From Geosiphon pyriformis uo1 (taxonomy: Eukaryota; Fungi; Glomeromycota): DNA of 64,000 nucleotides. Under the pieces are notes generated by a model. It saw only the letters and a list, made by a program, of their open reading frames with translations, did no database searches and was not told the DNA's origin. This document shows positions 14,401-63,700 of this stretch, one piece after another (within the stretch, counting starts at the first letter, position 1; each line of letters opens with the position of its first letter). The stretch lies in contig JAAOMT010000414.1 of the NCBI GenBank assembly GCA_016748015.1, positions 90,481 through 154,480 on the forward strand. Reading direction: 5' to 3'. The position numbers and the translations under genes were made by a program.

Positions 14401-16990
14401 ATGTTTGGAAGAAATTAACACTTAACTATATGACCACTGTTTGATTCCATGTGACTTTCAATATTGTAATAAGTGTGACCTCATTTATAATCCACTACTA
14501 TGCATAATCTACATGATTTCAGAAGAGGAAGAACCAATCAACAGCTGTGCATCAAAATCAGAATCAACTTTCAATCCCAATTCAAACTCTGACAATAATG
14601 ATGACAAAAATACTGGTTCCAGCTCCACGCAATATGGTAACAAAAATATCAACAGTTCAAACTTCGATTCAAAATCTGAAATATACATTGTGTTTTCTGA
14701 TCTTTTTAAGAAGCAGGAACTTAAATGGTATAGTGATAACAATAAAGGTATCATGCCAGAATGCATGCATGATACCGATACAGAGTTTGATCTAAGATAT
14801 CCCAGGAAAAATCCCATTAAATTAGAACCACATTCACATATATGTATTGATCTTAAGATAGCACTAGAAATTTCAGCAACAACTATGGTCTAATTAGCAT
14901 CTAGGAGTAGTTTAGCAAAAAAAGGAATTAACATCAAAGAAGGAATAATTGATGCGGGATATGTAGGAAATATTATCGCCATGCTACAAAATGACTCAGA
15001 AAAGATCTATATTATAGAGCCAAATGAAAAGATAGCACAGGCAATATTTTTACCTCTGGTGAAAATAACTCAGTTAGTGTCAGTGGGAAACAGGAAGGAA
15101 TTAGGAATTACAGCTAAAGAGATACAGGGATTCAGATTAATGGGTAGAATAGATATATTAGTTAATATGGCAGAGAAAAAAATTGTTGACAAAAGAGAAA
15201 TTATCTCAATCCGTCAAACAATTTTCATTCTGCCATATAACCAGTATATGTTAGCTATAAAAAGAGAAGTAAAGGATCAAGCTCAATTGTTTAAAGCAGA
15301 AGCCACTATTTGTAAATCAGAGAAAATTGAACTTACTAATTTCTACATATCAGCCAAAAGCCCCAAAAACATTAAAATTCTCATCTATAACACAATTGGA
15401 AAAGTCATTGAAATACCAAAGGGAACCATCATTGGATATTTAACCACCAAAGTTGAAGATCAACCACCAAACCACATTCCAAATTTTCCACAGCTTTACA
15501 GATATGTGAACATTACATCACAAACCATCTATGGAAAAAGTGAATGTTATCTGCTCCAACCAAAACATGAGGAATCTAAATCCACTTCAACAGATGCAAC
15601 TCAAGATGTTACTCAACAATTTCAATGACATCTTTGCTAGCAAAAATGAATTTGGGTGAACCAATATCATCCAGCATTAGATCAAGACTAGAGATGCAAT
15701 GCCAATCAAGCAAAAAGCATACAGAGTACTACCAGCTAGCCATGAGATCATTTGTCAAGAAATCAATCAGATGTTTGACAACGGGCTAATTCAGCCATTA
15801 ATGAGTCTATGGTTGTTACCAGTAGTACTAATCTGGAAAAAAAATGAGAAAATCCACTTTTGTGTAGATTACTGGAAACTGAATGGAATAACTAAAGGCA
15901 ATAACTATCCAACTCCAAAGATCCAGGAATTATTCAATGCTTTTGGTGGAAATAAATGGTTCTCAACATTAAATTTAGATAGTGGATACTAGCAAGTAGC
16001 AATGAATTCAGCCAACAAAGAAAAAACAGCATTTACCACAAAAGAAAGAAATTTTGAGTTTGAAGTCATGCCATTTGGCTTGATGAATACTCCAGCAACA
16101 TTCCAACAGCTTATGGAAATTGTCTATACTGGACTACTATGAAAATCAGTAGTCGTATACTTGGATAACACCAATGTGTTCTCAAAAACATTTGATAATC
16201 ATCTGCATTATCTTCAACAAGTGTTTGAAAGATTAAGAAGAGCCAAATTGAAACTAAATGTAACAAATGTTTCTTTGAAAAAACTGAACTCAAGTTTTTG
16301 GAACATGTAGTGAGTAAAGATGGAATCAAAATAGATCCAGACAAGATTGAAGTAGTTAAGAACTTTCCAGTATCAACCAACTTGACAAAACTAAGAGCAT
16401 TTTTGGGATTCGCAAGCTACTATTGTCACTTCATCAAGGACTTTTCTAAATTAGCTCAGCTGCTTCACTATCTATAAACCAAGAATGAGAAGTATGAATA
16501 GACTGAAACTCAACAAAAAGCTTTCGATACATTAAGAAGAAAGCTTATCCAAGCTCCAGTATTGATGTATCCAGATTACAACAAACCATTTATCATTACT
16601 ACTGATGCATCAGGTCAAGCATTGAGAGCAGTACTCTCACAGAAAAGACCCGATGGAAGAGAACATCCAGTAGCTTATGTCAGTAAAAGTTTAAGTCCAG
16701 CTGAAAAGAACTATGGAACTCCAGCACTAGAACACTTAGCTATCTATTGGGCTGTCACCAAATAGAAGGAATACTTGAATCAAAAATTTGAAGTGTACAC
16801 TGACCACAAAGGATTAACTTCAATCCAGAAACAAGAATTTGCAGATGATCATTATGCCAGATGAAAAATAGAACTTTCACCATTTAATTACACAGTACAT
16901 TATAAAAAGGGAAAAGACAATAGAAATGCTGACAAACTGTCACAAATAAGACAAATCTAAAAACATTTCAACCCAAAAATATAACAAAAG

Positions 16991-18367
16991 ATAAATACAC
17001 AAAAATACTAACAACTACAACATTATATAAATACCCAATTGTTCAAGGAGAAATTATCTCAAAAGGAATAAAACAACATAAAACAACAATTAAAATATTT
17101 TATCAATCATCAAAATATACTTTACCAGAAGAACAGAAGAAATCCAAATCAACCAACCAGAGTAATCACAGAACCAGGAAAAGAAACAATATTATTCAAC
17201 ATGCATTCAGATCCAACAACAGGACATTTTTATAAAGAAGTGACCATAGAAAGAACCAGAAAAAAATATTATTGGCCATCAATGTATCCAGACATCATCC
17301 AATATGTTCAAAATTGTAATGCTTGTCAAAGAAGAGAAGAAACAAAACTAAGTGAACTATTAAGACCAACCAAAGTGGGACAACCATTCAATTGCATTAG
17401 AATTGACTTAGTCAGACCATTAACAATCACCAATAGAGGCAACAGATATATTGCAGTAGCTATAGACTATTTCACAAAATGGCCAGAAGCAAAAGCCATT
17501 CAAAGAGCAGATGCAGAATCCATTGCCAAATTTGTCCATTAAAATTTGATTTGTTGACATGGATGTCCAAAAGAACTACTATCAGATCAAAGAATCCACT
17601 TTGTGAATAGAACATTAACAGAATTAAGTCAGAGATTTGGGATAAAAAGACCATTATTATCACCATATCATCCACAAACCAATAGACTAGTTAAAAAATT
17701 CAATAGAACACTGTGTAAAGCAATCACCAAAATCAGTCAAGAAAACTAAGATGAATGAGATTTGTTTATACCATTAGTATTATTTGCTTATCGGACAATG
17801 AAGCAAGACACTATACAAACAACACCATTTGAATTAGTATATGGTAGAACAGCAACATTACCAGTTGAGATGGAAGTTACCACTTATCCAACAAAACCAA
17901 TAACTGAAGACAATTTTTAGAAAACATTGCTAAAAAGAATATATGACTTAATAGAAACATTAGAAAATAAATGGCAAAGAGCAGCTGATAACATCCAAAA
18001 GTCACAAAAAAAACAAAAAAAAAGACATAATAATTAACTACCAAACAAACCAGTTGAATTCAAAATTGGAGACAAAGTACTTCTACATCATACCAAAGCG
18101 GAAAAACAATAGAATAGAAAATTCGATCTCAAATGGGACAAACCATTTTACATAAAAAAAATTCTTGGAAATGGAGCTTATAAATTAAGATGGAACAACA
18201 AAATTTTAACCAAAGCAGCACATGGTGATCGACTGAAACTATATCACTAAATAGTATTATCATCCACCAATAACATTCCACAATTGGGAGTACAACGAAT
18301 ACTAGTTCAACCAGATGAGATTCCATGAAATCTGGGACCAATCATAATCATTAGACTAAACATGTAA
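16991..18367 (+). pseudogene. Integrase ORF of A (separate from pol)
   Basis: HSDPTTGH..CNAC zinc finger; IDL/SDQ/GLVERFN-like DDE core; KWD(G)PF (GPY/F) motif; no chromodomain; preceded by TAA at 16958 and 16982. Confidence 0.85.
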
Positions 18368-18427
18368 AATCAAACAATAAAAGAGTATATAAAGATACAG
18401 TATACATGACAAAAACAACCAAGAAAA

Positions 18428-19063
18428 ATAGAAATACCAGATCATATTCATGCCATAGCTCAACAATTATTCCAGGCCTTAAGTCAACAACTTTTAGACA
18501 TAGAAATTATCATTAACAACCAAACAATTTGCTATCAAAACACCAAAAGAAAAACAAAAAATACACCATATTAGCAGTTACCAAAGAATGATAAAAACTG
18601 GTTAGATAGCATAATAAAAAAAGTAAAAAACACTTTTGGGAAAATACCTATTATGGCACCAACAGAAAAACTTACAAAAAAGAATTAGAAGCAATGGACA
18701 AAACAACTTCCAATATTATACTGTTACTATTAATTAGGTCGAAAGTTAAATATTCAAGAGTTGTATATCAACAAATCCAAGAGAATATTTAACCAAAACA
18801 TAATACAGCAAATTGAAGAATTTATTGAGAAAAAAGTGAACTCAACACTACATGTGAGAACAATTTATTGACTGCACAACATATTTCAGAACTATCTAGA
18901 AATACTGTTATATTCTGACATGGAAACCATAACCATTAATCAATGAGGAAGAATAAACAATACACAAGTAGAAGATGTGAAGAACAGAGTTGAACAAACA
19001 ATACTAGAAAAAGAAGTATTAGAGCTAATTCAGAATGAAGATTTCAATGAAGCTCAATATTAA
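18428..19063 (+). pseudogene. ORF3 of A (unknown ~210-aa protein between IN and PPT)
   Basis: (M)EIPDHIHAIAQQLFQ...EKEVLELIQNEDFNEAQY*; homologous to ORF3 at 30634, 34958 and 60167. Confidence 0.7.
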
Positions 19064-19077
19064 AAAGGAGGAGATAA

Positions 19078-27600: not shown

Positions 27601-30600
27601 GAAACGTATAATTGTAGCATTTAAAGATTATTGAATAAAATATAACTAAAGAGTACATCTAATACTTGATATTAAATTCTAAGAGCACTAATATAAAACA
27701 TAGAATTATATCAGTGTGTGATTATTTGTTGACAGTACAAATTATCTTTTTATTTTCAAATTCTCAGTTATTTTTTGAAAAATATAGTAACTGAGATATT
27801 TTATGAAACTGATCTTACATATTAAATTCATATTTATTCAATTCGCTCTTTGAAGTTGAATTCTTTTTGATTCCTTTCATTACTTTACAATCTTGTTCTC
27901 CTTTGCTATCTGTTAGCTTATTACTTCAACCCATAACAATACTACTAACAAGCCATAAGATTATCTAACAAGAAATCAACAGAATATTGAACAATGGGTT
28001 AATTCAATCATTAATAAGTTCATGATTGTCACCAGTAATACTAGTCCAAAAAAAGAATGGAAAGATCTGCTTTTGTATGGATTACAGAAAACTTAACAGT
28101 ATAATATGTAAAAACAGCTATCTAACTTTACAAATCCAAAAATTATTCAATGTATTTGAGGGAAAGAAATGGTTTTTAACATTAGATCTAAACAGTAGTT
28201 ATTGGCAAGTAATCATGAATTCAGCCAACAAAAAAAAAACAGCATTCACTACTAGAGAAGAGAACTTTGAATTTGATATTATGTCTTTCAGCTTAATAAA
28301 TGCTCCAGCTACTTTCCAATAGCTAATGGAAATTGTTTACATTAGACTACTATGAAAATCAATAGTAGTCTACTTAGATGACACTAATGTATTCTCAAAA
28401 ACATTTAATGATTATTTTCACTATCTTCAGCAAGTGTTTAAAAGATTAAGAAGAGCCAGATTAAAACTGAATGCAAACAAGTGTTTCTTTGGCAAAACAG
28501 AACTGAAATTTTTGAAACATGTCATAAGCAAAGATAACATTAAGACAGATTCAAACAAGATTAAGATCATCAAAAACTTTTTAGTATCAATAAATCTTAT
28601 AAAATTAAGAGCATTCTTGAAATTTGCTGAATACTATTGTTATTTTATCCAAAACTTCTCCAAATTGGCTTAACCATTTTATTAGCTCCAAGCCAAAAAT
28701 GTGAAATATGAATAGACAGAAACCCAACAAAAAGCTTTTGATATTTTAAGAAAAAAGCTTATTTAAACACCAGTACTAATCCATTCAAATTACAACAAAC
28801 TATTCATTATTACTACTGATGTATTAGGTCAAGCATTGAGAGCTGTATTGTCTTAAAAAGAACTAAATAGAAGAGAACACCCAGTAACATATGTCAGCCA
28901 AAGCTTAAGTCCAGCTGAAAAAAACTATAAAACTCCAGTACTAAAACATTTGGCTATCTATTAAACTATTATCAAATAGAAAGAATATTTGAGTTAAAAG
29001 TTTGATGTATATACTAATCACAAAGGATTGACATTAATCTAAAAGCAAAAATTTGGAAACAACTGTCACATAAGATAAAAAATAGAACTTTTACTATTTA
29101 TTTATACAGTACATTATAAAAAGAAAAAAAAATAGAAATGCCAACAGTTTGTTACAAATGAAACAAATCTAAGAACATTTCAACCCAAAAATATAACAAA
29201 AAATGAATACACAAAAAATATTTACAACTTCAGCATTATATTAATATTCAACAGTTTAAGAAAAAATTATTTCAAAAGAAGAAATTATCTCAAAAAGAAC
29301 AAAACAACATAAAACAACAATCAAAATATTTTATTACATATCAAAATATACTATATAAAAAACAGAAAAGATATAAATCAACTACTCAGAATAATCACAA
29401 AACTAGAGGAAAAACAATACTATACAATATGCACTTAGATTTGACAGCAAGACATTTTCATAAAGAAGTAACCATAAAAAAACCAGAAAAAAATAATATT
29501 GGTCATCAATGTATTCAGATATTATTTAATACATTCAAAATTGTAATGTTTGTCAAAAAAGAAAAAAAACAAGACTCAGTAAACTATTAAGAACAATTAA
29601 AGTAGAACAATTATTTGATCAAATTGAAATTAACTTAGTCAAACTATTGACAATAACCAGTAGAAAAAATCATTATATAGCAATAGTCATAAATTATCTT
29701 ACAAAATGGCCAGAAACAAAAGCAATTCAAAGAGCAAATACAGAATTCATAGCCAAATTTGTTTATCAAAACTTGATATGTCAACACAAATATTCAAAAG
29801 AATTGTTATCAAACCAAAAAACTCATTTTGTAAACAAAACATTAGCAGAATTAAGTCAAAAATTTGGAATCAAAAGACTATTATTATTATCATATCATCC
29901 ACAAACCAATAACTTAGTTAAAAGATTTAACTAAACATTATGTAAAACAATAATTAAGATTAGCCAAAAAAATCAGGACAAATAAAATTTGTTTATACTA
30001 TTAGTATTATTTGCTTATTGAACAATGAAGCAAGATATCATACAAACAACACTATTTAAACTTGTTTATGATAGAACAGCAACATTATCAGTTAAAATAG
30101 ACATCAACACATATTCAACAGAACTAATAACAGAAGCCAACTTCTAAAAAACATTGCTAAGAAAAACATACAAACTAATAGAAATATTAGAAAACAAAAG
30201 ATAAAAAGCAGTTGATAACATTCAAAAGTCACAAAAAAAACAAAAAAAATAACATAATAACCAATTACCAAATAAACCAGTTAAATTCAAAATTGGAGAC
30301 AAAATACTTTTACATTATACCAAAGCAAAAAAACAATGGAATAAAAAATTTAACCCCAAATAGAATGGACTATTTCATATTAAAGAAATTCTAGGAAATA
30401 GAGCTTACAAATTAAGATAGAACAACAAAATTTTAGCTAAAGCAGCACATAAAAATTGACTAAAATCATATCACAATATAGTATCATCATTCACCAGTAA
30501 TATTCTACAACTGGAAGCACAATAAATACTAATCTAACCAGATAAAATTCCACGAAATTTGGAACCAATTATAATCATTGACCAAAACAATATAAAAAAC

Positions 30601-44385: not shown

Positions 44386-46237
44386 TGTTGCCTTGACTGG
44401 TCTAAGTGGCTAGCCATATGTAGTAAGAGTGTAAATTGCATTTAGTTTGGGTTACTTAGCTTGGCTCTATGTACTAGATAGCAGTTGGGCTTCACTCAAT
44501 AAAAGTGGAAAAAATAAAATAAAAATAAACCATTCAAGATTAAACATACTGAGAAAATTGCACAAATTATTTATTTATTCTTAATTAACATATTGGATTT
44601 ACAATTAGTTATATTAAAAAAACAATTAGGCAAAAGCAAAAAAAAAATTCAAGATTTTGATTTAACTAAACAATTTACAGTTTTAATCAATATAGTTTTT
44701 AATACACAGAATAAATTTTACCAGATTTTTTAACTTTTTTAGCCAATTATTATTTTACTATTTGGAAAATATTATGAAATTTACATCTGCTTAAAACCTA
44801 TTATCATACAGTAAATTTTTAATTCAATAAACAAATTTGCAAAGAACATAATATTTTAATACTAAATATTTATATTTCTAAGAAAATAAGAAAATTTCAG
44901 ATTATTTTACAATTCTAATAATTATCTAATTGTTCTATTAAATAAATTAAAAATTAAAATCATATATAGCAATATTTTTTAAGAAAAATCTTTTAAATTG
45001 TTTTAAATTTATCAAAATTATAAAACATATATTATTCTCAAACTTAAACATTATTTTTACTACTAAAAACTACCACATTATTGAAAAAAAAACTTTTTCA
45101 AATTAATATGAGTCTCTTAAAATTCTAACAACAAAGACAATTAAAACAATTTATTACAAAAAAACTAATATTATATAGCATTAAATTCACACAAAAAATG
45201 CTTCATCAAAATATCAACAGATCTACTAAGTTTTACTAATTAGCCACCAATTTATTAGAGAAAAAATCTAACAAATACTCAATAATAGTCTTATTTAATT
45301 ATCCAGAAGTTTTTGGATCTTACCAATAGTTCTTATAAAAAATAAAAATAAAAAAATTTGATTTTGTGTCAATTATTGTTAACTAAATAGTATTACAATT
45401 AAAGATATATACTTTTTATTCAAAATTAACAATATGCTAAATACTCTAATAAAAACCAGATTTTTTTTAACTTTAAACTTGAAAACCAGATACTAACAAT
45501 TTGAAATAGATCTTAAAAACTGCTCTAAAACAGTCTTTACTATTTAAGAAGAAAATTATAAATTCAATATAATGTTTTTAAACTTTGCAATACACCAGCA
45601 ATATTTCAATAACTATGGATATTGTATATAAAGAACTCTTATAATAATCAGTAATTATTTATCTTAATGATATTAATATATATTTTTTAAGTTTCAAAGC
45701 TTATTTAATTTATTTGCAAGAAATTTTTTAACAATTACAGAAAGCAGAATTAAAACTTAATATTAAGAAATGCTACTTTGGAAAAACAAACTTGATTTTT
45801 TTTAAACATATTATTAGCAAAAATAGAATTCAACCTAATTCAAAAACAATTAATGTTGTCAAAAATTTTAAAATTCTCTAAAATATCACAAAATTAAAAA
45901 AATTTATAGAATTAGCCTTTTATTACTGAAAATTTATCAAAAAATTTTCTGAAATTGCCAAACTTTTTAATTATTTAACCAATAAAAATATCTGATATTA
46001 ATAAACAAAAAAACAGCAAAAAGTTTTTGAAACTTTTAAAATAAAATTAACTATAGCATTAGTTTTTTCCTATTTAGATTTCAACAAATAATTTTGATTA
46101 GTCACTAATATTTTATATACAGTATTTAGTACTATTTTATTATAATTAAATAATAATAGCTTATATTAACAAAATACTTAAATCCACTAAAACAAAATAT
46201 AACTTAATTAAATTAAAAGCAGCAGCTATTATTTCAG

Positions 46238-49200
46238 TATTACTCATAGAATATAAAAAATATATTAACATATAAATTAGCCAATCAGAAGTAGCCATAG
46301 TAAATATGAAATTCCAGAATTTTTCTTAGAAGAATTACAAGATTCCAAGAATTTTAGAATTCTTATACAAGAAATCACAAGATTTCAGAATTCCAGAATT
46401 CTTCTTAAAAGAATTAAGAAATTTCAATTATGTATATACAGCAGTAGCATTAGAAAAAGAAAAAACAGATCTCTCAGTTTAGATTTGATTTAAGGAACCT
46501 TTTTATTTACAAATATCAATAAATAACTATTCACTATCTTAATCTATTCTCTACTATCAACACTTCATGTTGATAATAACTGATACTTAACCACACTGAA
46601 ATAATAGCTCTTAATCATGGCTATTAATGGAATACTAATATTTATTGTTTTGGCTTATTTCTTTATTTTTTTTCATTTTTTTCATTTATTTTCTTTTGTT
46701 ATTTCTTTTTGTTTTACTAATTGATTAAGGATTAAAAAGTGCTGAGTTACAGATGTCATAGGGACTGGTAAAAGACTTATGAAACAAGAGTAAAACACTC
46801 ATAATTGAGAATAGCTTACCAGAAGGATTACCAGCCACCATGCTAAGAATGAAATTCGATGGAATTGTGATTCTGGAAGACTACTGAAACAACAATTGAA
46901 TCTTTGTTTATTATACAAAAGACTCCACCAAAATCTTCAGATTATGAAAACCTTCAAAAATCAACATCATTAAATCAATTGAGCACCAAGTTATGGGTTT
47001 GTTATTTGCTATAAGACCCCAAATAATTACCTGTAACATTTGATGCTTCCTGTAAGATATAATTTTACAGAAAACCAGTACCAACAACAAGTCATCCAAA
47101 AATGGCAGAATCAGAAATAATAGAGACAAATCATTTAGGATTTGCCAAATCCTTATTTCAATAATACAGCCAACAATTGGACTTAACCAATAATTATTAT
47201 CTAGCAGAATTAGTTTTCAACTTTTATGTCAACAAAAAAATCACAGATTTTCTTAAAAGACCAGTTGACATTGAATTAGCAAGAGAAAATTTCTATACAG
47301 AATTAATCCAATATATCAGCTTACCACAAAATCACAATTTTGCACCAATTATCAGAGAAATTAATCAAAAAATTGAAAGATACACTCAATAACAATTCTC
47401 TATTACCTATGCAAATAAGGGTAAAGGAAAGTTACAAACACCAGCAGCAACTTCAAAAGGAATATAATTACCAACATGAAAGAAACAAAGAATTGAATCT
47501 CCACTATATCCATTATATCATTACATACTCAAAAGTACCATCAATATTACATCAGCAAGTGTGTTCACATTAAACATAATATTAACATTTAGATGACTTT
47601 TATTTCAAAGTAAACAAAAAAAAGCAGAATTATAGGGAACTTATAACAATTACTTTAAAGGATTCAAATCTCAATCTCCAACACTATCAGAATTTCAATC
47701 ACCATCACTTCAACCAGATTTTGGAACTGTGAGTCCCTGGGAGATAACCGAATTAGAAGAAAAGAAAAACAACAATTAGGAATTTAATTACCAGAATCTG
47801 ATTGTAGAAAACTCAGAAGTTGAAACTCTGAATATTCAAACTCAGGAAAATCAGAATAATCCAAATTCTAATATTAATAATTAACAATACTTACCTTTAA
47901 TAATTGTTATCAATCCACCATCAGTTGCCACACAACAACAACCATTGTTACAACCTCAAATTTAGTTACCACCTTAACAACAACAACAACAACAACAATA
48001 ACCAAACTTGGATTCAATGGCTTATGCTCCAATAGCAAAACTTGAAAAGTTTATGGGCAAAGAAGATGATGTCTAAATATGGCTCAATGATGTCAAAAAA
48101 GCCATCATGACCAATGGATGGAATGACACAAAAGCCCTCTAAGCCATTCCATATTTTCTCTAAAATACTGCCAACTCATGATATCAAAGCTTGGTTAACA
48201 AATTCCAAGATTTTAATGCATTCAAGCTTGTATTTCTACAATATTTCAGTAACAATAATAGCATTAACTGCTTGGCAAATACTTTTATCACCATTAAGCA
48301 AGAAAAAACTGAAGCAGTTACTACTTACCTAGAATGCTTCCATAGGAATCTGGACCAAATTCAGGCAATACAAACCAATTATTTTACAGCACCACAAATT
48401 TTAAATCAATTCATTTGAGACTTGTACAGTAGCATTCTCTAATGTATACATCCATTACACTTAGCAAATCTTCAAGCAGCAATTACCTATGTTAGAGATT
48501 TTGAAGCCACTGAATTAGAAGCCAATCATAATCAAGCTGTGAATTTAGTAATGAACAGATCATTTAATTTGGATTCCAAATTAAAACAATTCAGTAATTT
48601 GATCAATCAGAAATTAAAAGAATACTTAGCTAACAATCAGGCAATTTATTAATCTTCACAGTAATACAATAATCAAGAAAATGCAAACTGTTTCCAAAAT
48701 CAGTCATGTTTGTTATCATTAATCAATCAGCAATAGCAGTAGGAGATGTGTGTTTGCCATTATTGTGATAAACAAAAACATTTGAGGATTGACTGCAGAT
48801 TAAGAATAGATAACTAATGATTGGAAAATTAATATTAAAACCTTGATCACCAGTTTCAAACTCCGAGATATCAATTCAACCCAGAACTATATTAACCAAA
48901 TTATTTATTAGTGATACAGCTACCAAGTTATTAACCACCCATTTATTAGACTCCAATACCAGTTATTTATTAACTACAGTCACAAATAATATATTAATCT
49001 CAACAAATTCTAACACCAACACCAAACTCAGCTTAGATAACATCAAAAAATCCCAGATCTAAGGTCACTCAAAACTGGAGATCAGCAATAGTTGTTTACC
49101 AGCTGATTCCCAGCTCTTTAAATCAGTCATCAAGATTACATCAGTGGAATTCAGAAACCAAGTACACCCAAAATCCAAGTTTCCAGAACTATTTAAGTCT

Positions 49201-51557
49201 TCTGGTTACCCCAGAAGACACCACATTCAACAACTTGAAAGTCAAACAAAAGCAGCCACTTACTAACAATATACTACTAGCAACCATTATTGAGAACAAA
49301 TTACTTACTGCTATCTTCTCTTTTGAACTTGAGAAATCAGTTAAAATGCTGCTATTTAATAGAGCCATCCTAGAATTAAAACTCATTACTGTAATATATA
49401 CAGATGCTAAAGTTGATGGGCAACACATTAAACTGATTCTAGACAATAAATCAGCTGACAGTATTATTATCTGACAATTCATAGATCAATTAGGTTGCTG
49501 AGTTGATTGTGTTATCAGTGCACAAATAATTATGGCCAATAGAGCAATAAAGACTCCAATTAGTGAAATAGATGACTTTCCATTTGAAGTCAATGGCATC
49601 TTAATATCAATCAAGGTATTAATAATAAAAACAACTCAGTATTAAGCTCTTATCAGGAATAACTGGTTGTCCAAAACTAATGCCATGCTCAACTGAAACA
49701 CCCAAGAACTACAGCTCAGCCAAAACAGCCAATACACATGTATATTAGCCACTTGTGATCATTTTAAGACCACTACCAATAACAAGCCATTTATCAAATT
49801 AGAAGAAAAAAAAAAAACCTACCTAAGAAGCCTACCAAGTTTTCTGGGCCAACACCAAACACAACAAGTTACTACCAGTATTTTTCTGGGATAACAAAGG
49901 GAAAAAAAGGAAAAAAATACACCAAAAGAAGACACCATCACAAAAGAAATAACTAGTGGCTAAGAAAAATTTTACTCACACAAGCCACCAAAGCAATTGT
50001 TATATATTCTACTCAAATGCTAAGATTGTGACAAGAAACTTTCTTTTATGGAAGCTTGAATTGCATTCAACAAAAATTACTAAACATAAATTCACTATTA
50101 CTGCAAACCATACCACAGAAAATAGTATGACTATCCAAAATAACAAGACAAGTGGGACAACAAACTATGTCTCACTTGTAAAGAACAATTACTTAACAAA
50201 GGAATATGGAATAACATTTCTGGTTAAGGAGGAATATACAACACTTCATACCAGTACATAATCTTTATCAACAACTGAGTAAGTTATGGAACTTCTATTA
50301 CTGCAGCCTGGCACCAAGCAATCTCTCATTTGGATGGTTACTCACATAATGAGGACAAAATTTAGCAAATGGTAAATACTAAAATCAAAGGAGCCATGCC
50401 TAGCAAAATCTTAAAAATTAAAAATAATCTTTTAGAACCAGTCAACATCGTCCTTATCCCAAATTCAGATGCTTTTTTTAACATAGAAACAAGTCCAAAA
50501 GAGTTTTATAAGCACTATCAGAATTTAGCATTCACAAGAGAGAAGCAGAAACAGTGTTTAGAATAACTAAACACCCAACTATGTGACTATTATTTGATTT
50601 CATGTAATTTTCAATATTGTAATGAGTGTAATCTCATCTACAATCCACTATCATGCATGATTTACATGATTCCAAAGAAAGATGAACCAATTAGCAGTTG
50701 TATATCAGAATTAGAATCACCATTCAATTTTGATTTAAACTCTGACAATGATGATGACAATAACAACAGTTCCAGCTCTGTTCAAATTGGCAATAGTGAT
50801 AACAACAATTCAAACTCAGATTCAAACCCAAACAATACATTGTGCTTTCTGATTTTACCAAGAAACAGGAACTAAGATGGTTCAGCAATAATGATAAAGG
50901 TATTATGCCAAAATGCATGCATAATACTAATGCAGGGTTTGATCTAAAATATCCAGGAAAAGATGCCATCAAATTGGAACCACATTCACACACCTGCATT
51001 AATCTCAAAGTAGTCTTGGAAATTCCAACAACAACAATAGTTCAATTAGCATCTAGAAGTAGTTTAGCAAAAAAAGGAATCAACATCAAAGAAGAAATAA
51101 TTGATGCAAAATATGTAGAAAATATTATTGCAATGCTACAAAATAACTCAGAAAAAGCTTATATCATAAAGCCAAACAAAAAGATAGCACAGACAATATT
51201 TCTGCCTTTGGTAAAAATAGCTTAATTAGTGTTAATAAGAAACAGAAAAGAATTAAGGATTACAACTAGAGAGATACAGAAATTCGGATCCATGAATAGA
51301 ATAGATATACCAGTTAATATGATAGAGAAAAAAATTGTTAACAAGAGAGAAATTATCTTTACTCATCAATCAATTTCCATTCCATCATATGATTAGTATA
51401 TAATAGCTATAGAGAGAAAAGTAAAGGATCAGATTCAGATTTTTGAAGCAGAAGCAACACTTTGTGAATCAAAAAAGATTGGATTAGTTAATCTACACAT
51501 ACCAGCCAAGAACCACAATTACATCAAAATTTCTATCTATAACAACATGGAAGACAT
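46238..51557 (+). mobile_element. 5' part of LTR retrotransposon D (LTR 46238-47038, gag to dUTPase), inserted in G and interrupted by E
   Basis: tattactcatag...tgtaaca LTR, PBS, gag ATG 47102, LILD, AGFDL/SRSS; breaks off in the second dUTPase-like domain at the next LTR. Confidence 0.85.
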
Positions 51558-54500
51558 TGTTACTTATAAAATATAGGAAGTATATTAGCATATAAATTTG
51601 CCAATTAGAAATAGCTGTAGTAAATATGGAATTTCAGAATTTCTCTTAAGAAGAATTGCAGAATTCCAGGAATTTCAGGATTCTTGTACAAAGGAATTGC
51701 AGAATTCCAAAAATTTCAAGATTCCTGGTATGAAAAATTAAGAAATTGAGAAATCTCAATTATGTATATATAGCAGTAGTGTTAGAAACAGAAAGAAACA
51801 GAATATTTTAGTTAGAGACCTCCTAGTTTAGATTTGATCTAAGCAATCTTCTATTCACAAATATCAATAAATAATTATTCATTATCTTAATTCACTCTTT
51901 ACTATCAACACTTTATGTTGATAGTAATTAATACTTAAACACACTGGAACAATAGCTCTTGATCATGGCTATTGATGGGATACTAATATTTATTGCTTTG
52001 GCTTATCTTTTTTATTTTCTTTTATTTCTGTTATTTTTTTTGTTATACTAATTACTTGAAAATTAAGTGCTAAGTTATTGATGTTACAGATAGCCTAATA
52101 AAAGACTCCAAAGGAAGAGTATAGGAATTAAAAAGTTAAGAATAACTTACCAGAAGAGCATCTCTGCCAAGATTACTGACCACCATGCTGAGAAAAAAAT
52201 TCGATGGAATTGTAATACTAAGAGACTATTGAGAAGACAATCATTGAATCTCTGTTCATTATACAAAGAACTCTACAACAAAATCTTCAGATAAACAATG
52301 CCTTCAGATATTACCAATAACATTATCAATTAAGCATTAAGTTACAGATTTGTTATTTGATTTGAGACCCCAAATAATCACTTGTAATATTTGGTGCTCC
52401 CTGTGAAGTATAATTCTACAGAGAACCAGCACCAGCCAACAACCATCCAAAAGTGGCAGAATCAGAAATTATAGGGACAAACCATTTAGAATTTGCCAAA
52501 TCCTTATTTCAACAGTACAGCCAACAATTGGGCTTAACCAACAACCACTACCCAGCAAAATTTGCTTTCAACTTTTATGTCAACAAAAAAATTACAAACT
52601 GTCTAAGAAGAACAGTTGACATTGAATCAACAAAGGAAAACTTCTATACAGAATTATTTCAACACACCAGGTTATTAAGAAATCACAGTTTTGCACCAAT
52701 CATTAGGGAAATTAACCAAACCATTCAAAGATACACTCAACAACAATTTCTTATTACCTATGCAGACAAAGGCAAAGGAAAGTTACAAACACCAACAGTA
52801 ACACCTAAAAGAATACAACTACCAACTTAGAAGAAAACAAGAATAGAATTACCAACAAATCCATCATACTACTATATACCAGGAAGTGCTATCAACATTA
52901 TATCAACAGGTGCATTCACATCAACCATGACATCAATATTTGGATAATTCACATTTCAGAGTAAACAAAGGAAAGAAGATCTTCTAGGACCATATGGCAT
53001 GTATTTTGAAGGATTTAAGTTATGATTGTCAACACTATCAAGACTTCAATCCCCACCACCCCAACCAGATTTCAGAACCACGAGTTCTTGGAAAATAATG
53101 GAATCAGAAAGAGAACAGGAAGAACAGGAAGAAGAGGAAGAAGAATTTAAAGATCAAGAATTTACTTACCAGAACCCGATTCCTAAAAACCCGGAAGTTG
53201 AAACTTCAAATCTGCAAACTCAGCAATATTTAAACTTAGAAAATCCAGAAATCAGAACTCTGAATATTCAAGCACTGCCAAATCAGGACAATTCAAACCC
53301 CAAGTTAATTAATCAGCAAAACTTACTTTTAGTAATTGTCACTGATCAGCCATTCATTGAACAGATTTAACAGCAGTAAATACCACTACAGCAGCTATTA
53401 CAACAATCACTTCAATCACCACAACAATTAAACATAAATCCAATGGCCTATGCCCCAATAACAAAACTTGGAAAATTCACAGAAGCAGAGGACAATGCAC
53501 AAATATGGCTCAACAATATTGAAAAAGCCATTACAGCCAATGGATAGAATAACACGAGAGCTCTACAGGCCATCCCATATTTCTTACAGAATACTGCCGA
53601 CTTGTGGTATTAAAGTTTGGCCATTAAACCACAAACATTCTAGGAATTTAAAATTGCATTCTTGGAATATTTCAGTAATAATAACAGTATTAATTATCTA
53701 GCCAATACCTTCACCACCATCAAACAAGGAGAAAATGAAGCAGTTACTACTTACTTAGGATGCTTCCACAGAAATTTGCATCAAATCCAGACCATATAAG
53801 CTGATTATTTTACAGCACCACAAATTCTGAATCAATTCATTAGAGAACTGCACAGTAGTATCCTCCAGCACATATGTCCAATGCATTCAGCAGATCTTCA
53901 AGCTGTGGTTACAAACGCCAGAGATTTTGAATCAGTTGAACTCGAAGCAAACCATGCACAAACCATAAATCTAGTAATAAATAGATCATCTGAATTGGAT
54001 TCTAAACTAAAACAATTCAGTGATTTAATCAATTAGAAATTAGAAGAATACTTAGTTGACAATTGTGAAATTTATCAATTTCCCCAATAATGTAATAATC
54101 AAGAAAACTCAAATCATGTCCAAAATCAATCGCATCCAACATCATCAACCAATTAACCATGGCAACAGAAAACGTGTGTATGCCACTATTGTGGTAAACA
54201 AAGACATTTGCAATTTGAATGCTGAAAAAAGATAAGCAACCTAAGATCAGCTAATTAGTATCAAAACTTTAATTGCTAACTACAACCACAGAATTACATC
54301 AGTAATCAATTACTAAAACAATATCAACTAAATTACCTACCTATGACACAACAGCCAATCTATCAACTACCAGTTTATTAGCCAACAACACCCATAATTT
54401 ATCAACCATAGTTCCAGCTTATTTATTAGCCACAGTCTTAAGTAATTTATCAACTCCAACAAATTTAAACACTGCCACAAAACTTACCTCAAAATGGAAC

Positions 54501-57500
54501 CCAAAGGCCAAAACTGACACAACAGAGCTGGAGATTGTTGATGGTAGTCCATCAACTGATCCCCAGTTCCTTAACCCAGCCATCAAAATCTTGACAATGA
54601 AATTCGGGCACCAGGTACACCCAAAACCCGAATGTCCAACAGTATTTAAGTCTTCTAATTACCCCGAAAGATGCCTTACCTAACAACTGGAAACCTAAAC
54701 AAAAGCAGCCACTTACCAATAATATTCTGCCAGCAACTATTTCCAATAATGAATCTCTAGTAGCTATTTTTCCTTTTGAATTCAAGGAAACCACACCAGT
54801 CCCATTATTCAGTGGAGCCACTCTTGACACCAAACTGATCACTGCCATGTACACTGATGCAAAAGTGGATGGTCATGCCATCAAACTGATTCTAGACAGT
54901 GGATCAGCTGGCAGCATCATTACACAACAACTCATGGACCAATTAGGTTGCCAAGTTGATTACACTGCCAGTGTATGCATAATTACTGTTGATGGAACAA
55001 CCAAAACTCCCATCGGTGAGATTGATGACCTCCCAATAGAAGTCAATGGCATCATAGTGCCAATCAAAGTATTAGTTATGGAAGCCACCTAATATCAAGC
55101 TCTAGTTGGGAACAATTAGCTGTCTAAAACCAACATAACACTTAACTGGACCACTCAAGAGTTGCAAATCAGTCAAAATGGCCAACATATGCAAACACCA
55201 GCAATGTGTGGTCATTTTAAGACCACTAATGTGCCAACACCATTAATAGAACTCAAAGAAAAGATAAGCAAACCTTTTTGAAAAGCCTATCAAGTATCAT
55301 GGGCTGACAAGGACCACAACAAACTACTGCCAATACTTTCTTGAGACAACAATGAAAAAAAAACACAAAAAAAAAAACTTACCTGGAATGCAAACCAAAC
55401 CTGGGAAACTAACAATGGCTCAGACAAATTACCAACTTGGAAATAGGAAAAAACCAACAAAGGGAAAGGAAAAAGGAAAGAAGAAGACCTACTTAAAAAA
55501 ACCACTACCATGAAAGAAACAACTAGTGATTGGGAAAGAGAGTACTCACAGAAACCAATAATAGAACCACCATACATACCTCTCAAATGCAAAGACTATA
55601 GAAAAAAACTTTCTTCCATGGGAGCTTGGGTTGTGCCAAATAAAGATTACTGGATGTAAACTTACTATTACTGCAAGTTATGCCACAAAGAATGTTATGG
55701 CTATCCAAAGTAACAAGGCAAGTGGGACAATAAACCATGTTTTGATTGTGGAGAACAGTTGCTTGATAAAGGAATGTGAAATAACATTTCTGGTCAAAGA
55801 GAAATGTGCAACACTTTGTGCCAATACACAATCTTCATTAACAACTGGGTAAGTCATAGAACATCTGTTACTGCCACCTGGCACCAAGCAATCTCCCACT
55901 TGGACAGTTATCCACACAATGAAAACAAGATTGGTGGATAACGAACACCAAAATAGAAGGCACCATGCCCAGTGAAATATTAGAAATCAAGAACAACCCC
56001 CCAGAACCAGTCAACATTGTATTGGTTCCCAACCCAGACACTTTCTTGGATCTGGAAACAAATCCAGAAGAATTTCATGAGCACTATCAAAATTTAGCAC
56101 CCACTAGAGAAGAATAAAAGCAGCATTTAGAGCAGTTGAATACTTGATTATGTCAACATTACTTAATTTTCAGTGACTTTCAATATTGTAACAAGTGTGA
56201 CTTTATTTACAATTCACCAACATGCATGATTTATACAATCCTGGAAGAAAAAGAACCAATTAGCAGCTACGCATCAGAATCGGGATCAACTTTCAATCCT
56301 GATTCAAACTCTAATAATGATGACAATGAAAATAACAGTTCTAGCTCTATTCAAAATGGCAATGAAAATTATAATAATTCAGACTTTGATTCAAACCCCA
56401 AAACATATATCATGCTTTCTGACCTTTCTAAAAAATAGGAACTTAAATAGTTCAGTGATACCAATGAAGGTATTATACCAGAACGTGCACATGATACTGA
56501 TGCTGGGTTCAATCTGAAATATCCAAAGAAGGATGTCATCAAATTAAAACCACACTTGTGCATATACATTAATCTCAAAATAGCATTAGAAATCCTAGCA
56601 ACAATAATGGTTCAACTAGCATCTAGAAGTAGTTTAGCAAAAAAAGGAATTAACATCAGAGGAGAAATAATTGATACAGGATACATAAAAATATCATTGC
56701 AATGCTACAAAATAATTCAGAAAAAGCCTATGTCATAGAGCCAAATAAAAAGATACACAAGTAATATTCCTGTCTTTGGTAAAAATAGCTCAATTAGTAT
56801 TAATAGAAAACAGAAAAAAGTTAGGGATTATGGCTAGAGGGATACAAGAATTTGGATCAACAGATAGAATAGATGTACCAGTTAATATGACAGAGAAAGA
56901 TATTATTAACAAAGGAAAAATTATTTCCACCCATCAACCAATTTCTATTCTACCATATGACCAGTACATGATAATTATAAAAAGAAAAATAAAGGATCAG
57001 GTTCAGATTTTTGAGGCAGAAGCAACACTTTGCAAATCAGAAGAAATTGGTTTGGTTAACTTATACATACCAGCAAAAAATCATAGTCACATCAAAATCC
57101 TCATTTATAACAACACAGGAGATATCATTGAGATACTAGCAGGAACCACCATCAGATACTTGACCACAAAAATTAAAGACCAATTTCTAGACACCATTCC
57201 AGACTTTCCACAACTGTGTGGATATATAGACATTATATCACAAACAATATATAGATGAAAAAAATGTTATCTGCTTCAACCAAAACAGTTGGAATAGATA
57301 AACATGGAAAACTTGGATTTACTTTAATATATATAGCTCAAGATGTTGCTCAACAACTTTAATAACATCTTTGTCAATGAAAATAAATTTGGCAGAACTA
57401 ATATCATCTAATACCAGATCAAAACTGAAGATGCAATGCCAATCAAACAAAGAACATACAGAGTACCACCAGCCAGCCATGAAATTATTTGTCAAGAAAT

Positions 57501-58730
57501 CAATTGGATGCTTGACAACAGATTAATTTAATCATCAATAAGTTCATAATCATCACCAGTGGTATTAGTCCATAAAAAAATGAGAAAATCTGCTTTTGTG
57601 TAGATTACTGGAAATTGAATGGAGTAACCAAAGGTAATAGCTACCCAACTCCAAAGATTCAAGAGCTGTTTGACACTTTTGGAAAGAAGAAATGGTTCTT
57701 AACTTTAGACTTAAATAGCAGTTACTGGCAAGTAGCCATGAAACCAGAAAACAAAGAGAAAATGGCTTTTACAACTTGAGAAAGAATTTTTGAATTTGAA
57801 GTAATGCCATTTGGCTTGATAAATGCACTAGCAATATTCCAATGATTAATGGAAATTGTATATACTGGGCTACTATGGAAATCAGTAGTCATATACTTGG
57901 ATAACACCAATGTGTTTTTAAAAAGATTTGATAATCATCTGCATCATTTCTAACAAGTATTTGAAAGACTAAGAAGAGCCAAATTAAAACTAAATGCAAC
58001 CAAATGTTTCTTTGGAAAAACTGAACTCAAGTTTTTGAGACATGTAGTAAGCAAAGATAAAATCAAAACAGATTCAAACAAGATTGAAACTGTCAAGAAC
58101 TTTCTAGTACCAAATAATCTCACAAAATTAAGAGCATTCTTGGGATTTGTGGAATACTACTGTTGTTTTATCAAAAACTTTTTAAAAATAGCTCAACCAC
58201 TACACCAACTCCAAACAAAAAACACCAAATATGAATAGACAGAAATTCAGCAAGAAGCTTTTGATACATTAAGAAGAAAGCTTATTCAACTCCCAATACT
58301 AATTTATCCGGATCATAGCAAGCCATTTATAATCACAACTGATGCATCTGGTTAAGCATTGGAAGCAGTATTATCTCAGAAAAGACTGGACAGACAAGAA
58401 CATCCAGTAGCTTATGCCAGTAAAAGCTTAAATCCAGTTGAAAAGAACTATGGAACTCCAGCATTGGAACACTTAGCTATCTATTGGGCTGTCATTAAAT
58501 GGAAAAAATACTTGAGTCAAAAATTTGACATATATACTGATCACAAAGGATTGACTTTAATTCAGAAACAAAAATTTGCAGATGATTATCATGCCAAATG
58601 GAAAATAGAACTTTTACCATTTAATTATACAATATATTATAAAAAAGGAAAAAAAAATGGAAATGCTAATGGATTGTTGTGAATAAAACAAATCTAAAAA
58701 AAACATTTCAACTCAAAAATATAACAAAAG

Positions 58731-60106
58731 ATGAATATACAAAAATATTAACAACTCCAACATTATATAGATACCCAATTATTCAAGGAAAAATTATCTC
58801 AAAAAGAACAAAACAACATAAAACAACAATCAAAATATTTTATCAACCATCAAAATATATTTTATCAGAAGAACAAAAGAAATCCAGATCAACTAATCAG
58901 AGTAGTTACAGAACCAGAGAAAAAGACAATATTATTCCACATGCACTGAGATTCAACAGCAGGATATTTTCATAAAGAAGCAACTATGGAAAGAATCAGA
59001 AAAAAATACTATTGGCCATCAATATATTCGAATATTATTCAGTATGTTTAAAATTGTGATGCTTGTCAAAGAAGAAGTGAAACAAAACCCAGTAAACCAT
59101 TGAGACCAATCAAAGTAGGACAACTATTCAACCATATCAGAATTGACTTAGTTGGATTATTAACAATTACCAGCAGAAGCAACAGATATATTGTGATAGC
59201 CATGAATTATCTTACAAAATAGCCAAAAGCAAAAGCCATTCAAAGAGCAGATGCAGAATCCATTGCCAAATTTGTTTATCAAGATTTGATCTGTTGACAT
59301 AGATGTCCAAAAGAACTATTATCAGATTAAGGAACCCACTTTGTAAACAAAACATTGACAGAATTAAGTTAAAGATTTGGAATTAAAAGACTATTGTCAT
59401 TATCATATTATCCACAAATTAATGGATTAGTCAAAAGATTTAATAGAACACTGTATGAAGCAATTGCTAAGATTAATCAAGAAAACCAGAATGAATAAGA
59501 TTTGTTTATACCATCAGTATTATTTGCTTATTGGACAATGAAGCAAAACACTACACAAGCAATACCATTTGAATTAGTATACAGTAGAACAACAATATTA
59601 CCAGTTGAAATAGAAGTCAACACTTATCCAACAGAACCAATAACTGAAGACAATTTTCAGAAAATGTTGCTAAGAAGAACATATGACTTGATAGAAACAT
59701 TAGAAAACAAATGGCGAAAAGCAGCTGATAACATCCAAAAGTCACAAAAAAAACAAAAAAAAAGACATGATAACCAACTACCAGAAAAACCAGTTGAATT
59801 CAAAATTGGAGACAAAGTACTTTTATATTGTACCAAAGCGGAAAAACAATGAAATAGAAAATTTGACTCCAAATAGAACAGATCATTTCACATAGAAAAA
59901 ATTCTTGAAAATAGAGCTTATAAATTAAGATAGAACAACAAAATCTTAGCCAAAGCAGCACATGGTGATTGACTGAACCATATTACTATATAGTGTTACC
60001 ATCCACCAATAATATTCCACAATTAAGAGTATAAAGAATACTAGTCCAACCAGATGAGATTCCACAAGATCTGAAACCAATCATAATTATTGGACCAAAC
60101 ATGTAA
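58731..60106 (+). pseudogene. Integrase ORF of E with its own ATG
   Basis: MNIQKY..LQHYIDTQLF...MHxDSTAGYF..CDAC...IDL...EKQ...IIIIGPNM*. Confidence 0.85.
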
Positions 60107-60166
60107 AATTGAATAATAAAAAGAGGATATAAAGACATAATAGACGCGACAGAAGACTTCAGAAAA

Positions 60167-60792
60167 ATGGAAATCACTAACAACATTCACTTATTAGCAC
60201 AACAAATTTTCCAACTGATTTAACAACAAAATATGGAAATTACTATCAATCAACAAACTATTTAATACTGAGATACTAGAAAGATATCCAAATACAAAAG
60301 TCAAAAAAAAACAGAAAACATTATTAACAAAATGGTTCTGAAAATAAAATTAGCAATAGAAGAACCAACAAGTATTACCATATATCAAGAGTTGACCAAA
60401 GAAACTTGGAAATGATGAATACACAAATTTCCAAAAAACTTTTGTTATTTCTACTTGGGACAACACTTGAATATTCAGAACTTATACATGGACAAAACAA
60501 GACAATTATTTAACACAACAATACTGCAACAACTAAAACAATTTGTGGAAAAAAATAATTTGACCACACAAGTAAGAGCCATCTATAGACTACATATGGA
60601 ATTTCAAGACAGACTAGAAATCTTACTTAATTCAGAATTGGACTCTATTACAGTTAACCAGATAGGAAAAATAACCAACACCCAATTTGAAGAATTACAG
60701 AACAAGATAACCCAAGCAATTCTTAAAAAAGAAGTTCAAGAAATATTCAATGGCAGAGAATTAAAGTTAGGAGATTTGGGAGATCTTGATAG
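60167..60792 (+). pseudogene. ORF3 of E (unknown protein)
   Basis: ATG 60167 is in frame with track ORF 60455-60847: MEITNNIHLLAQQIFQL...CYFYLGQHLNIQNLY...VRAIYRLH...ITVNQIGKITNTQFEEL. Confidence 0.75.
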
Positions 60793-63700
60793 TGTTACTT
60801 ATAAAAAGAAAACAGATATAAAAAATAGCAGATCAATAAGAGAATAATATTTAGCATGTGAGCATATTGCTTAGTAATATGGAGCAATATCAAAAATCAT
60901 AGCACATTGCTTAGCAATATAGAGCAATATCAGAAAGCAATATCAGAAAGCATGGCACATTGTTCAGCAATGTGGAGCGATGTTAGAAAATTAGGGCACA
61001 TTGTTCAGCAATGTGAGCATTGCTCAAGAAATCATAGCACATTACTCAAGAATGTGAGCAATCTTGTAGAACATCAATTATGTATATATAGCAGTAGCAT
61101 TAGAAGTAGAAAGAGCAGAATCTTTTGGTTAAAAATTTTCCATCCACAAATATTAAATAAATAAATTATTCACCATCCAAATCCACTCTCCACTATCAAC
61201 ACTTCATATTGATAGTAATTGATACTTAACCATGTTGGAACAATAGTTCTTGATCATAGCTATTGATAAGATACTAACTTGTACATCGTCTTGGCTTATT
61301 TCTTTATTTTCTTTTATTTCTTTTTTTCTTTAATTTTGTTGTTGTATATTAACTGATTAAAAATTAAAGCACTGAGTAATTAACGTCACAAATAGTCTGG
61401 TAAAAGACCCAGAAATAAGAGTAAAATTATATATATATTAACAGATAGCTTACCAGAAAGGCACAAATGCCAGAATAAACCAGCCACCAAGCTGAAAACA
61501 GAAATTGGGAACACAACTCACCAACCAACTACATTGTCATTGAATTTCTGTCTATTATACAAAGAACTCAATGCTAAAACCTTCAGATACAACCAACATA
61601 CCAATAACACCAGCTTTGTCAAGATATTGAGCACCAAGTTACAGATTTGTTATTTGATTTGAGGCCCCAAATAATCATTTGTAACATTTGATGCTCTCTG
61701 TGAGATATAATCTTACAGAGAACCAGTACCAACAACACCCATCCAAACAGTGGCAGAATTTAAAGAAACAGGAACAAATCATTTAGAATTTGCGAAATCC
61801 TTATTCCAACACTACTGTCAACATTTAGGATTAATCAACAACCACTTATCAGCAAAATCAGCTTTTAATTTCTACATCCACAAGAAAATCTCATATTTAT
61901 TAGGAGTACCAGTAGAAACCAACTCAGCCAGAAAAAACTTCTACAATGAATTAATCCAGAATACCAGCCTATCAACAAATTACAATTTCACAGCAATTCT
62001 CACTAAAATCAATAAAGAAATTGAAATTTACACTCAACAAAGATATTTAATTACCTATGTAAACAAAGGCAAAGGAAAACTGCAAACACCAGCAGTAACA
62101 CCCAAAAAGATACAACCACCCACTTGGAAGAAAACAAGAGTTGAGTCACCAATTAATCCATCATATTATTATACACCCAAAAGTGCCATCAATATTACAG
62201 ACGCATCCACATCAAACACAACATCAACCTTTGGACAATTTTTATTTCAGAGTAAACAAAAGAAAGAAGATCTTCTAGGACTATACGGCGCATATTTCAA
62301 AAGATTTAAGTCTCAATTGCTTATGCCATCAGGACTCCAATCTTCACTACCCCAACCAGATTTCAGAACTGCGAGTTTCTAAGACGTAACAGAATCAGAA
62401 AAAGACCAAGAAGAAAAGGAAGAAGAATCTGAAGATTAAGAATTTACTTACCAGAACCTGATCACTGGAAATTGAAACCCTAAACTTTCAGACTTAGCAA
62501 AATCTAAGTTTAAAAAATCCAGAAATTAAAACTCCAAATTTTCAAATGCAGCACAATCAAAACAATCAAAACTCCAATCTAATTAATTAACTGGACCTAC
62601 CTCCTGTTATCATTATTAACCCACCACCAGTTGAACCAATTGGCCAGCCACTACAACAACTACACCAGCAGATTCAACAGCCACTAATACCATTTCAACA
62701 ACCACCACAACCCAACTTAGATCCAATGGCATACACACCAATAGCCAAACTCAAAAAATTTACTGGCAAAGAGAACAATGTCCAAGTATGGCTAAATGAT
62801 ATGGAGAAAGCCATTGCAGCTAATGGATAGAATGACACCAGAGCCATGCAAGCCATCTCATATTTTCTCCAGAATACTGTCAATTTATGGTACCAAAGTC
62901 TGGTTAACAAACCCCAAGATTTTAATGCATTTAAAATTGAGTTTTTAAAATACTTCAGCAACAATAACAGCATTAACAAGCTAGCAAACATCTTCACTAC
63001 TATCAAACAAGAAGAAAATGAAGCAGTCACTATTTACTTAGAATGCTTCCATAGAAATCTGTGCCAGATCCAAGCCATTAATGCCAATTATTTTACAGTA
63101 GCCCAGATCCTAAATCAGTTTATTCACAGATTATACAGCAGCATCCTGCAATGCATATGTCCAATGCATCCCATCGATCTGCAAGCAGCTGTCACAAACA
63201 CCAGAGATTTTGAAGCCACTGAATTAGAAGCCAACCATGTCCAAGCCATTAATCTAGTAATGAATGGATCATCTGAATTGGATTCCAAATTGAAACAATT
63301 TAGCAATTCTATCAATTATAAATTAAAGGGATACTTAACTGACAATCACACAATTTATCAACCACCACAACGATGCAATAATTCTGGAAATGTGAATCAC
63401 TTCCAGAATCAGTCACATCCATCATTATTGACCAATCAACAGTGGCAACAGAAAATGCATGTTTGCTACTATTGTGGTAGACAAGAACACCTACAAATCA
63501 ATTACCACTATTGCTTAAATAACCAACAATTAGGAAATTAATATCAAAACCCTGATCACCAGTTTCAAATTCCGAATAACCCACCAAACTCAGAACCATA
63601 TCATCAGAATTACTTACCTATGATGCAACAGCCACCTTATCAATCACCAGTATATCAAATGCCAATTTATTAGCTGTAGTCACAACCAATTTATTAGCCA

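Follow-up and report, generated by a model that had tools for sequence, protein, structure and literature searches.

A separate integrase reading frame behind RNase H in a Ty3/Gypsy-type element of Geosiphon pyriformis and its relatives

The element and its copies

The window, i.e., the whole stretch of 64,000 nucleotides of Geosiphon pyriformis DNA that was analysed, is AT-rich and contains a cluster of decayed copies of a single LTR element (Table 1), among which D, E and F form a tandem array, with one LTR common to D and E. The LTRs (TGTTAC...GTAACA) have TG...CA ends and are about 830-910 nt long; the two LTRs of copy A are 91% alike over 607 nt, and a candidate target site duplication around this copy, itself decayed, reads TTGG on one side and TTAG on the other. 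The primer-binding sequence TT-TGGTGCT follows the LTRs of A and E, and a polypurine tract, AAAAAGGAGGAGA, lies directly 5' of the 3' LTR of A. The coding order is gag, protease (PR), dUTPase, RT, RNase H (RH) and integrase (IN), and the Pfam domains Ty3_capsid, RVT_1, RT_RNaseH and Integrase_H2C2 were recognized. Gag and protease share one frame in D and E; the start of the E coding region was placed by the ATG of D at the matching position, where E reads GTG. The observed/expected ratio of CpG is 0.03-0.14, and C/T and G/A columns in the aligned copies far exceed other changes.

Table 1. Positions of the element copies, of the features of copy E and of related features
Feature	Position	Strand	Remark
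Copy A	about 3529-20870
Copy C	21677-32183
Partial copy	near 34.4-36.4 kb
Copy D	46238-52389
Copy E	51558-61686
Copy F	from 60793
5' LTR of E	51558..52389	+	TGTTAC...GTAATA; also 3' LTR of deleted D
Primer-binding site of E	52392..52406	+	starts TGG, 2 nt past LTR
gag-protease-dUTPase-RT-RNase H region of E	52453..58697	+	decayed; start inferred
TATAAAAA	58638..58645 (E), also 16901, 29115	+	Tyr-Lys-Lys codons of RNase H
TAA closing RT-RNase H frame of E	58695..58697	+	4 codons past N-A-x-G-L-x-x motif
Spacer of E	58698..58730	+	33 nt, A/C-rich; second TAA 58722
Integrase ORF of E	58731..60106	+	separate; ATG, N-terminal extension, H2C2 zinc finger, core
Further ORF between IN and 3' LTR of E	60167..60850	+	decayed; ORF3 position
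3' LTR of E	60793..61686	+	then PBS-like sequence and gag of F
Junction of copy A	16958..16993	+	TAA 16958, 30-nt spacer, TAA 16982, start decayed to ATA 16991
Junction of copy C	29170..29205	+	TAA 29170, 30-nt spacer, TAA 29194, ATG 29203
ORF3 in relatives	L005:2284-2715, L002:5890-6333		examples among 11 loci

By its ends, coding order and RT, the element is a member of the Ty3/Gypsy group (Metaviridae), with which it shares the TG...CA LTRs, the TGG primer site, the purine tract and the gag-PR-RT-RH-IN order; it departs only from the usual layout with integrase in Pol, integrase lying outside Pol here, and it carries a dUTPase and an extra 3' ORF. Surveys place integrase within the polyprotein, and the two-ORF plant elements that they describe are broken after GAG or GAG-PROT (PMC3248453, PMC6317226), whereas stops follow RNase H in three copies of the window and at 16 related junctions. 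The chromodomain that would mark a chromovirus (PF00385) was found neither at the C-terminus of the window integrase nor in the 120 listed homologues described below.

Copy D ends after dUTPase and enters the next LTR, being a second deleted form without RT-RH-IN. A younger related element (5891-12151, minus strand), flanked by a clean 4-bp target duplication (ATGC), is nested in copy A; its gag and protease-dUTPase frames are open, and it has no RT, RNase H or integrase before its 3' end. Since it contains N gaps and a duplicated piece of gag, it is partly misassembled. A LINE-like sequence with few stops lies at about 37800-44400; it encodes an RT (RVT_1, E 6.7e-10) and, at the C-terminus, an RNase H (E 9.3e-11).

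Stops and starts between RNase H and integrase

In copies A, C and E, the stops and starts of the junction were found exactly where the first-pass annotation had located them. Both TAAs and the start codon are in the RNase H frame in A and E, and copy C has a 2-nt deletion within the A-run of YKKG. The 33-nt spacer of E contains no AUG, no GT and no predicted structure, and GT is absent from the spacers of all three copies; the integrase ORF of E is interrupted by decay stops and, late in the frame, by a frameshift. In the DNA run X1, which may be the very source of the window, several contigs double back over the spacer at 58701-58729, suggesting copies with a tandem spacer duplication.

The six TAAs shared by the three copies had been read as ancestral, on the argument that decay stops mostly differ between copies, and a comparison of CAA and TAA at the background rate of decay had been proposed as a check. 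Alignment of 778 codons of RT-RH and IN across A, C and E revealed stops at 40 positions in at least one copy, of which 28 are confined to a single copy, 10 are shared by two copies and 2 by all three; the argument holds, yet stops shared through decay do occur, the two three-way cases being Trp codons (TAG/TAG/TAG and TGA/TAA/TAA). None of the 778 aligned coding codons reads TAA throughout A, C and E, and at the 33 codons that read only CAA or TAA, TAA accounted for 9 of 99 codons, never in two copies at once. It follows from these counts that the six shared TAAs are not products of decay, and the ancestral reading is strengthened by unbroken relatives that are split too (next section). At the rate of 9 TAAs in 99 codons, the probability of six TAAs would be about 6e-7 by hand calculation, if the copies decayed independently. 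At the second TAA, every alternative letter stayed below 3% among 1395 run X1 contigs, which is a weak test, as the expected ATA>ATG control was absent near the edge; the 40 differences listed for the run X1 contigs included the decay control 58749 T>C, at 58% of depth, and did not include either junction TAA. No contigs of runs X2 and X3 aligned to the window.

The split layout in relatives

The claim that integrase is a separate gene with its own ATG was borne out by unbroken relatives with the same split, which is spread across the clade. Of 80 metagenome loci examined as DNA relatives, all 11 in which the integrase scored at least 400 bits and an RT lay upstream are split (11/11). Unbroken examples are L002 (1479+418 aa), L010 (688+423 aa) and L014 (1114+427 aa); in L002, the 1479-aa ORF comprises gag-PR-RT-RH and is followed by the 418-aa integrase. 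Lower-scoring loci are mainly fused or decayed, or have integrase ahead of RT. An ATG stands at the aligned first position of integrase in 22 of 23 high-scoring loci (the other, L008, is cut at the contig end), compared with 0 of 15 lower-scoring loci. In L006, L009, L023 and L025, integrase is preceded by the terminal part of a Cys/His-rich pol tail that shares homology with the tail of L002, and the pol tail of L084 also ends like that of L002; these five loci and the 11 split loci made up a set of 16 junctions. That the shared stops represent decay or error passed on from one dead master copy is next to untenable: the heavy C>T and G>A decay with CpG of 0.03-0.14, the tandem arrangement of copies and the two Trp codons stopped in all three would suit it, but it is contradicted by relatives split at the same boundary without being broken (L002, L010, L011, L012, L014) and, by the weak test above, by the uniform second TAA in run X1.

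L037 was a candidate split locus by virtue of an overlap, but it carries a chromodomain and is near-identical to the fused L042, so it was read as a frameshift and left out of the split set. Long acidic tails extend past RNase H in L002 (3497-4438, 315 aa) and L014 (4950-6702, about 584 aa), and the L002-type tail has a conserved Cys/His cluster common to L006, L009, L023 and L025, with no Pfam match. L084 and L085 are short contigs in bacterial metagenome bins and probably represent eukaryotic contamination.

A protein search with the window integrase as query, its stops replaced by X, retrieved 254 homologues of 242-770 aa, of which the 120 listed are 337-453 aa long; those close homologues that carry a species name belong to Rhizophagus irregularis. 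Among those listed, 102 begin 65-77 residues ahead of the zinc-finger His, 56 of these exactly 72 residues before it, as in the window, and 18 begin at a later Met. It is to be noted that gene callers start at Met, so that the common start column, and not the Met itself, counts as evidence. Fused forms (n = 20) were seen among the longer proteins, in what was a weak search for them; the highest-scoring one reached 282 bits, compared with 385 for the top stand-alone integrase. Viral contigs gave only 3 weak integrase matches, and an RT search of 50% representatives matched chiefly multi-copy chimeric proteins.

Quick trees were drawn for both domains, that of RT omitting 11 distant or redundant loci. 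With three window copies included, RT placed the window on one side of 20 rows (SH-aLRT 99), comprising the window copies, all 10 split loci included in the tree, 6 proteins without integrase and 1 fused protein; with copy E alone, the window fell outside the split clade. In the integrase tree, the window lies in a group of 25 rows (support 82), of which 24 are split or stand-alone and one is the fused P0124, and L010, L024 and L030 lie outside this group among fused rows, so that split rows do not form one clade. P0123, located inside the split RT clade, is a fused RT-RH-IN with hardly any linker and a Met right past the RNase H motif, and looks like a re-fusion. One origin of the split, with re-fusions, would fit these trees; since the fused P0123 and P0124 are close and split rows are scattered in the integrase tree, a single origin is only a candidate.

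A third ORF, ORF3, follows integrase in 11 loci, where the products are related to each other (119-283 aa, with a core of about 145 aa), and homologues are annotated in Cetraspora pellucida. It matched no Pfam family, and a search for an earlier account of it found none. The predicted model, made with confidence (pLDDT 92), is all-helical and clearly resembles no known fold, as Foldseek E values exceeded 0.1 and the best structural match had Z 5.0 with an rmsd of 3.2 over 69 residues; the Atlas matches of this ORF had low counts of shared features. The window ORF at this position is conserved in four window copies; its homology to the ORF3 of relatives is only suggestive, as hhalign returned E 0.018 with a probability of 2.5%, and its score against the ORF3 HMM (3.6 bits) was under the best of 1200 shuffles (9.3).

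Possible routes to a separate integrase

LTR retrotransposons are thought to package integrase through the Gag-Pol polyprotein fusion, and a lineage without this fusion needs other means to set the dose and delivery of integrase. In the mechanism proposed here for this Ty3/Gypsy-type element, whose integrase ORF has its own ATG 30-33 nt past the stop of gag-PR-dUTPase-RT-RNase H, ribosomes on the genomic RNA would terminate at the RNase H stop, scan the short AUG-free spacer and reinitiate at the integrase AUG, and integrase would consequently be made at a lower dose than RT. Of the three routes named in the first-pass annotation (internal promoter, splicing and reinitiation), reinitiation appears to fit the sequences best. 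Nonetheless, that the separate integrase ORF is made by termination-reinitiation with short scanning has in our judgement only about an even chance, because an equal lack of AUGs would be expected of a subgenomic RNA whose start lies close to the stop.

The integrase AUG behaves as a true start, since a purine occupies -3 in 20 of 23 relatives, compared with 84 of 135 internal ATGs; G occupies +4 in 20 of 23 versus 38 of 135, which is partly due to the residues Asp and Glu. The spacers of the 16 junctions range from -8 to 727 nt, with frames 0, +1 and +2 in 3, 5 and 8 loci, respectively. In the 12 spacers of 30-190 nt, a class defined by a 200-nt cut that was picked after the data were seen, there is 1 AUG against 14.6 expected from shuffles, and there are 29 AUGs in the 100 nt ahead of the stops of the same spacers. 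No such depletion is seen in the long spacers (278, 365 and 727 nt), which have 22 AUGs against 23 expected; being AUG-rich, these three cannot work as they stand by scanning from the stop. All 15 non-overlapping spacers together contain 23 AUGs against 37.7 expected. L020 has the sole overlap among the 16 junctions (AUG-NN-UAA), and in L007 an AUGA overlap is found at the IN-ORF3 boundary. The TURBS motif UGGGA was seen within 120 nt before the stop at only 1 of 15 loci, and none was read in the window alignment.

A capped subgenomic RNA, transcribed from a promoter located within the 3' end of pol and starting near the stop, is a possible but unlikely alternative. The AUG-free spacer could serve as its 5' leader, the long AUG-rich spacers would be tolerated if the start were near the ATG, and TATAAAAA, which had been taken for a TATA box, does lie about 90 nt upstream of the integrase start in A, C and E, with only 2 such words in the 8.4 kb of copy E. 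However, TATAAAAA encodes Y-K-K of RNase H, and the relatives do not support the TATA box claim: TATAWA occurs in the 150 nt around the integrase ATG in only 1 of 23. The AUG-free zone, moreover, tracks the stop even when a 315-aa tail shifts it (L002, L006, L009, L023, L025), and the overlap of L020 requires no leader.

Any evaluation of the remaining routes has to consider a hairpin of about 40 nt that lies a few bases 5' of the integrase AUG in nine loci (L002, where it is at 4465-4501, L003, L006, L007, L009, L015, L018, L023 and L025), and consists of a lower stem, an 11-nt 5' bulge (GAAAGC-NN-AAG), a 6-bp upper stem, a bulged A and a triloop. Changes on both sides were observed at 8 of 13 pairs, and 0 of 500 shuffles reached the covariation score, although the structure was derived from the same rows; in slid controls, pairing fell to 21-47%. 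The hairpin model added L034:11-62 and L085:153-207, both just 5' of integrase, making a total of 11 relatives. It had no match in the window, and the hairpin pattern was likewise absent from the window and from viral and prokaryote contigs; an Rfam scan gave three chance-level matches, none at the motif, and the literature searched held no published account of it. With its lower and upper stems, 5' bulge and triloop, it resembles the epsilon element of HBV in shape. For reinitiation, this hairpin is a difficulty, as it could impede scanning in the 11 relatives, and it holds a branch-point-like URAY and a YAG.

These same elements, the URAY with the bulged A and the YAG, would favour a spliced subgenomic mRNA in which a donor in the 5' leader is joined to an acceptor before the ATG, as for env genes, and in 9 of the 10 hairpin loci measured the distance from the ATG back to the nearest YAG is 5-15 nt. 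This route seems rather unlikely to us all the same. The acceptor suggested at the window junction, AAG|ATG, is present in A and E, but copy C reads aaaaa|ATG. AAG is a poor splice acceptor. As a lineage-wide feature, an acceptor beside the ATG was likewise not sustained: the window sequence is AAG and not YAG, there is no AG in the 63-nt spacer of L012, and in four loci the distance to the nearest AG is 56, 72, 87 and 114 nt. Furthermore, the 3' strand of the L003 hairpin has no AG, and base pairing itself explains the conservation of the hairpin.

It is distinctly improbable that the RNA before the AUG, i.e., the hairpin in the subclade and the unstructured A-rich spacer here, recruits ribosomes internally, without upstream translation. 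The two-sided changes at 8 of 13 pairs, unmatched in 500 shuffles, the constant position of the hairpin between stop and AUG, and its recognition in L034 and L085, which were not used in building the model, are consistent with such a role. On the other hand, the model matches neither the window nor L084, Rfam has no match at the motif, and AUGs are missing upstream of the hairpin as well (L009, L023), which internal entry would not need.

That a full polyprotein is still made, whether by Ogre-like splicing-out of the spacer, by readthrough of both stops or by a frameshift, is very improbable. In its favour, the RH and IN frames of the window agree across the junction, an intron between ORFs is spliced in Ogre (PMC6317226) and P0123 is a direct RH-IN fusion with Met right past the RH motif. 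Against it, the two TAAs of the window would both need readthrough, the three window spacers have no GT, and the relatives show every possible frame offset, as many as 15 stops in frame, and a conserved Met whose context is strong. Since the spacers are in all three frames, conserved readthrough or frameshift is ruled out. Ogre, also a Gypsy element, likewise has its pol region interrupted by a non-coding gap, but its gap is between PR and RT and is spliced out (PMC6317226), whereas the gap here is between RH and IN; with no GT in the window spacers and no AG in that of L012, an Ogre-type GT...AG intron is not seen.

Returning to termination-reinitiation, a review describes its proposal across the 63-nt ORF1/ORF2 spacer of LINE-1, reinitiation gaps of up to 29 nt in pneumoviruses, and stop/restart in SART1 and in the fungal victoriviruses and hypoviruses (PMC5972666). 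Like LINE-1, SART1, victoriviruses and hypoviruses, the element has a downstream enzyme ORF with its own AUG soon after the stop of a long ORF; compared with the overlapping or almost adjoining stop and start of SART1 and victoriviruses, the gap here is 30-33 nt, and stop and start overlap in 1 of 16 related junctions. The differences from LINE-1, SART1, victoriviruses and hypoviruses are that only integrase is split off here, in an LTR element without a TURBS motif, and that the mechanism is proposed from sequence.

A separate integrase would have to reach the cDNA without a polyprotein. The simplest route would be for it to bind its own template RNA and be co-packaged; alternatively, it may load on the cDNA in the nucleus, like the stand-alone Ginger1 transposase. 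Foamy viruses, hepadnaviruses and caulimoviruses make Pol separately, and their enzyme, like the integrase here, must reach the particle unfused to Gag; there it is RT that is separate, and here it is integrase. Gypsy integrases with a YPYY motif include those related to Athila/Tat, Gypsy-1-I_RO and DGLT-A, with Ginger1 DNA transposons alongside (PMC2836005). The window integrase is similar to these and to Ginger1 in its length of about 400 aa and its extension before the zinc finger, the YPYY match being by eye only. DGLT-A is described as having one ORF, without an N-terminal integrase extension (PMC5006619). Ginger1 transposases are described as stand-alone proteins, a further likeness, but Ginger1 has TIRs of 40-270 bp and no RT, while the element retains LTRs and RT, has no TIR layout and carries integrase between RT-RH and LTR.

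No account of a split integrase was found among the papers listed by the literature searches, whose coverage of subscription journals was sparse and did not extend to Repbase Reports. The broadest reading, offered tentatively as it is unlikely to hold in full, is of a polycistronic fungal Gypsy lineage (gag-pol, IN and the orphan helical ORF3) that uses reinitiation for its downstream genes, and in one subclade of which the hairpin controls integrase and loads it on the genomic RNA with no need of a polyprotein. If true, integrase would be delivered by a route new to these elements, which could also serve as a model for the rise of stand-alone Ginger1-type transposases. With the split lineage, reinitiation past a very long ORF becomes open to experiment in a fungal element, for which the covarying hairpin and the orphan ORF3 offer concrete handles. 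In one fungal survey, the rve domain served as the marker of Ginger (PMC5751038), and stand-alone rve proteins from split elements may be counted as DNA transposons.
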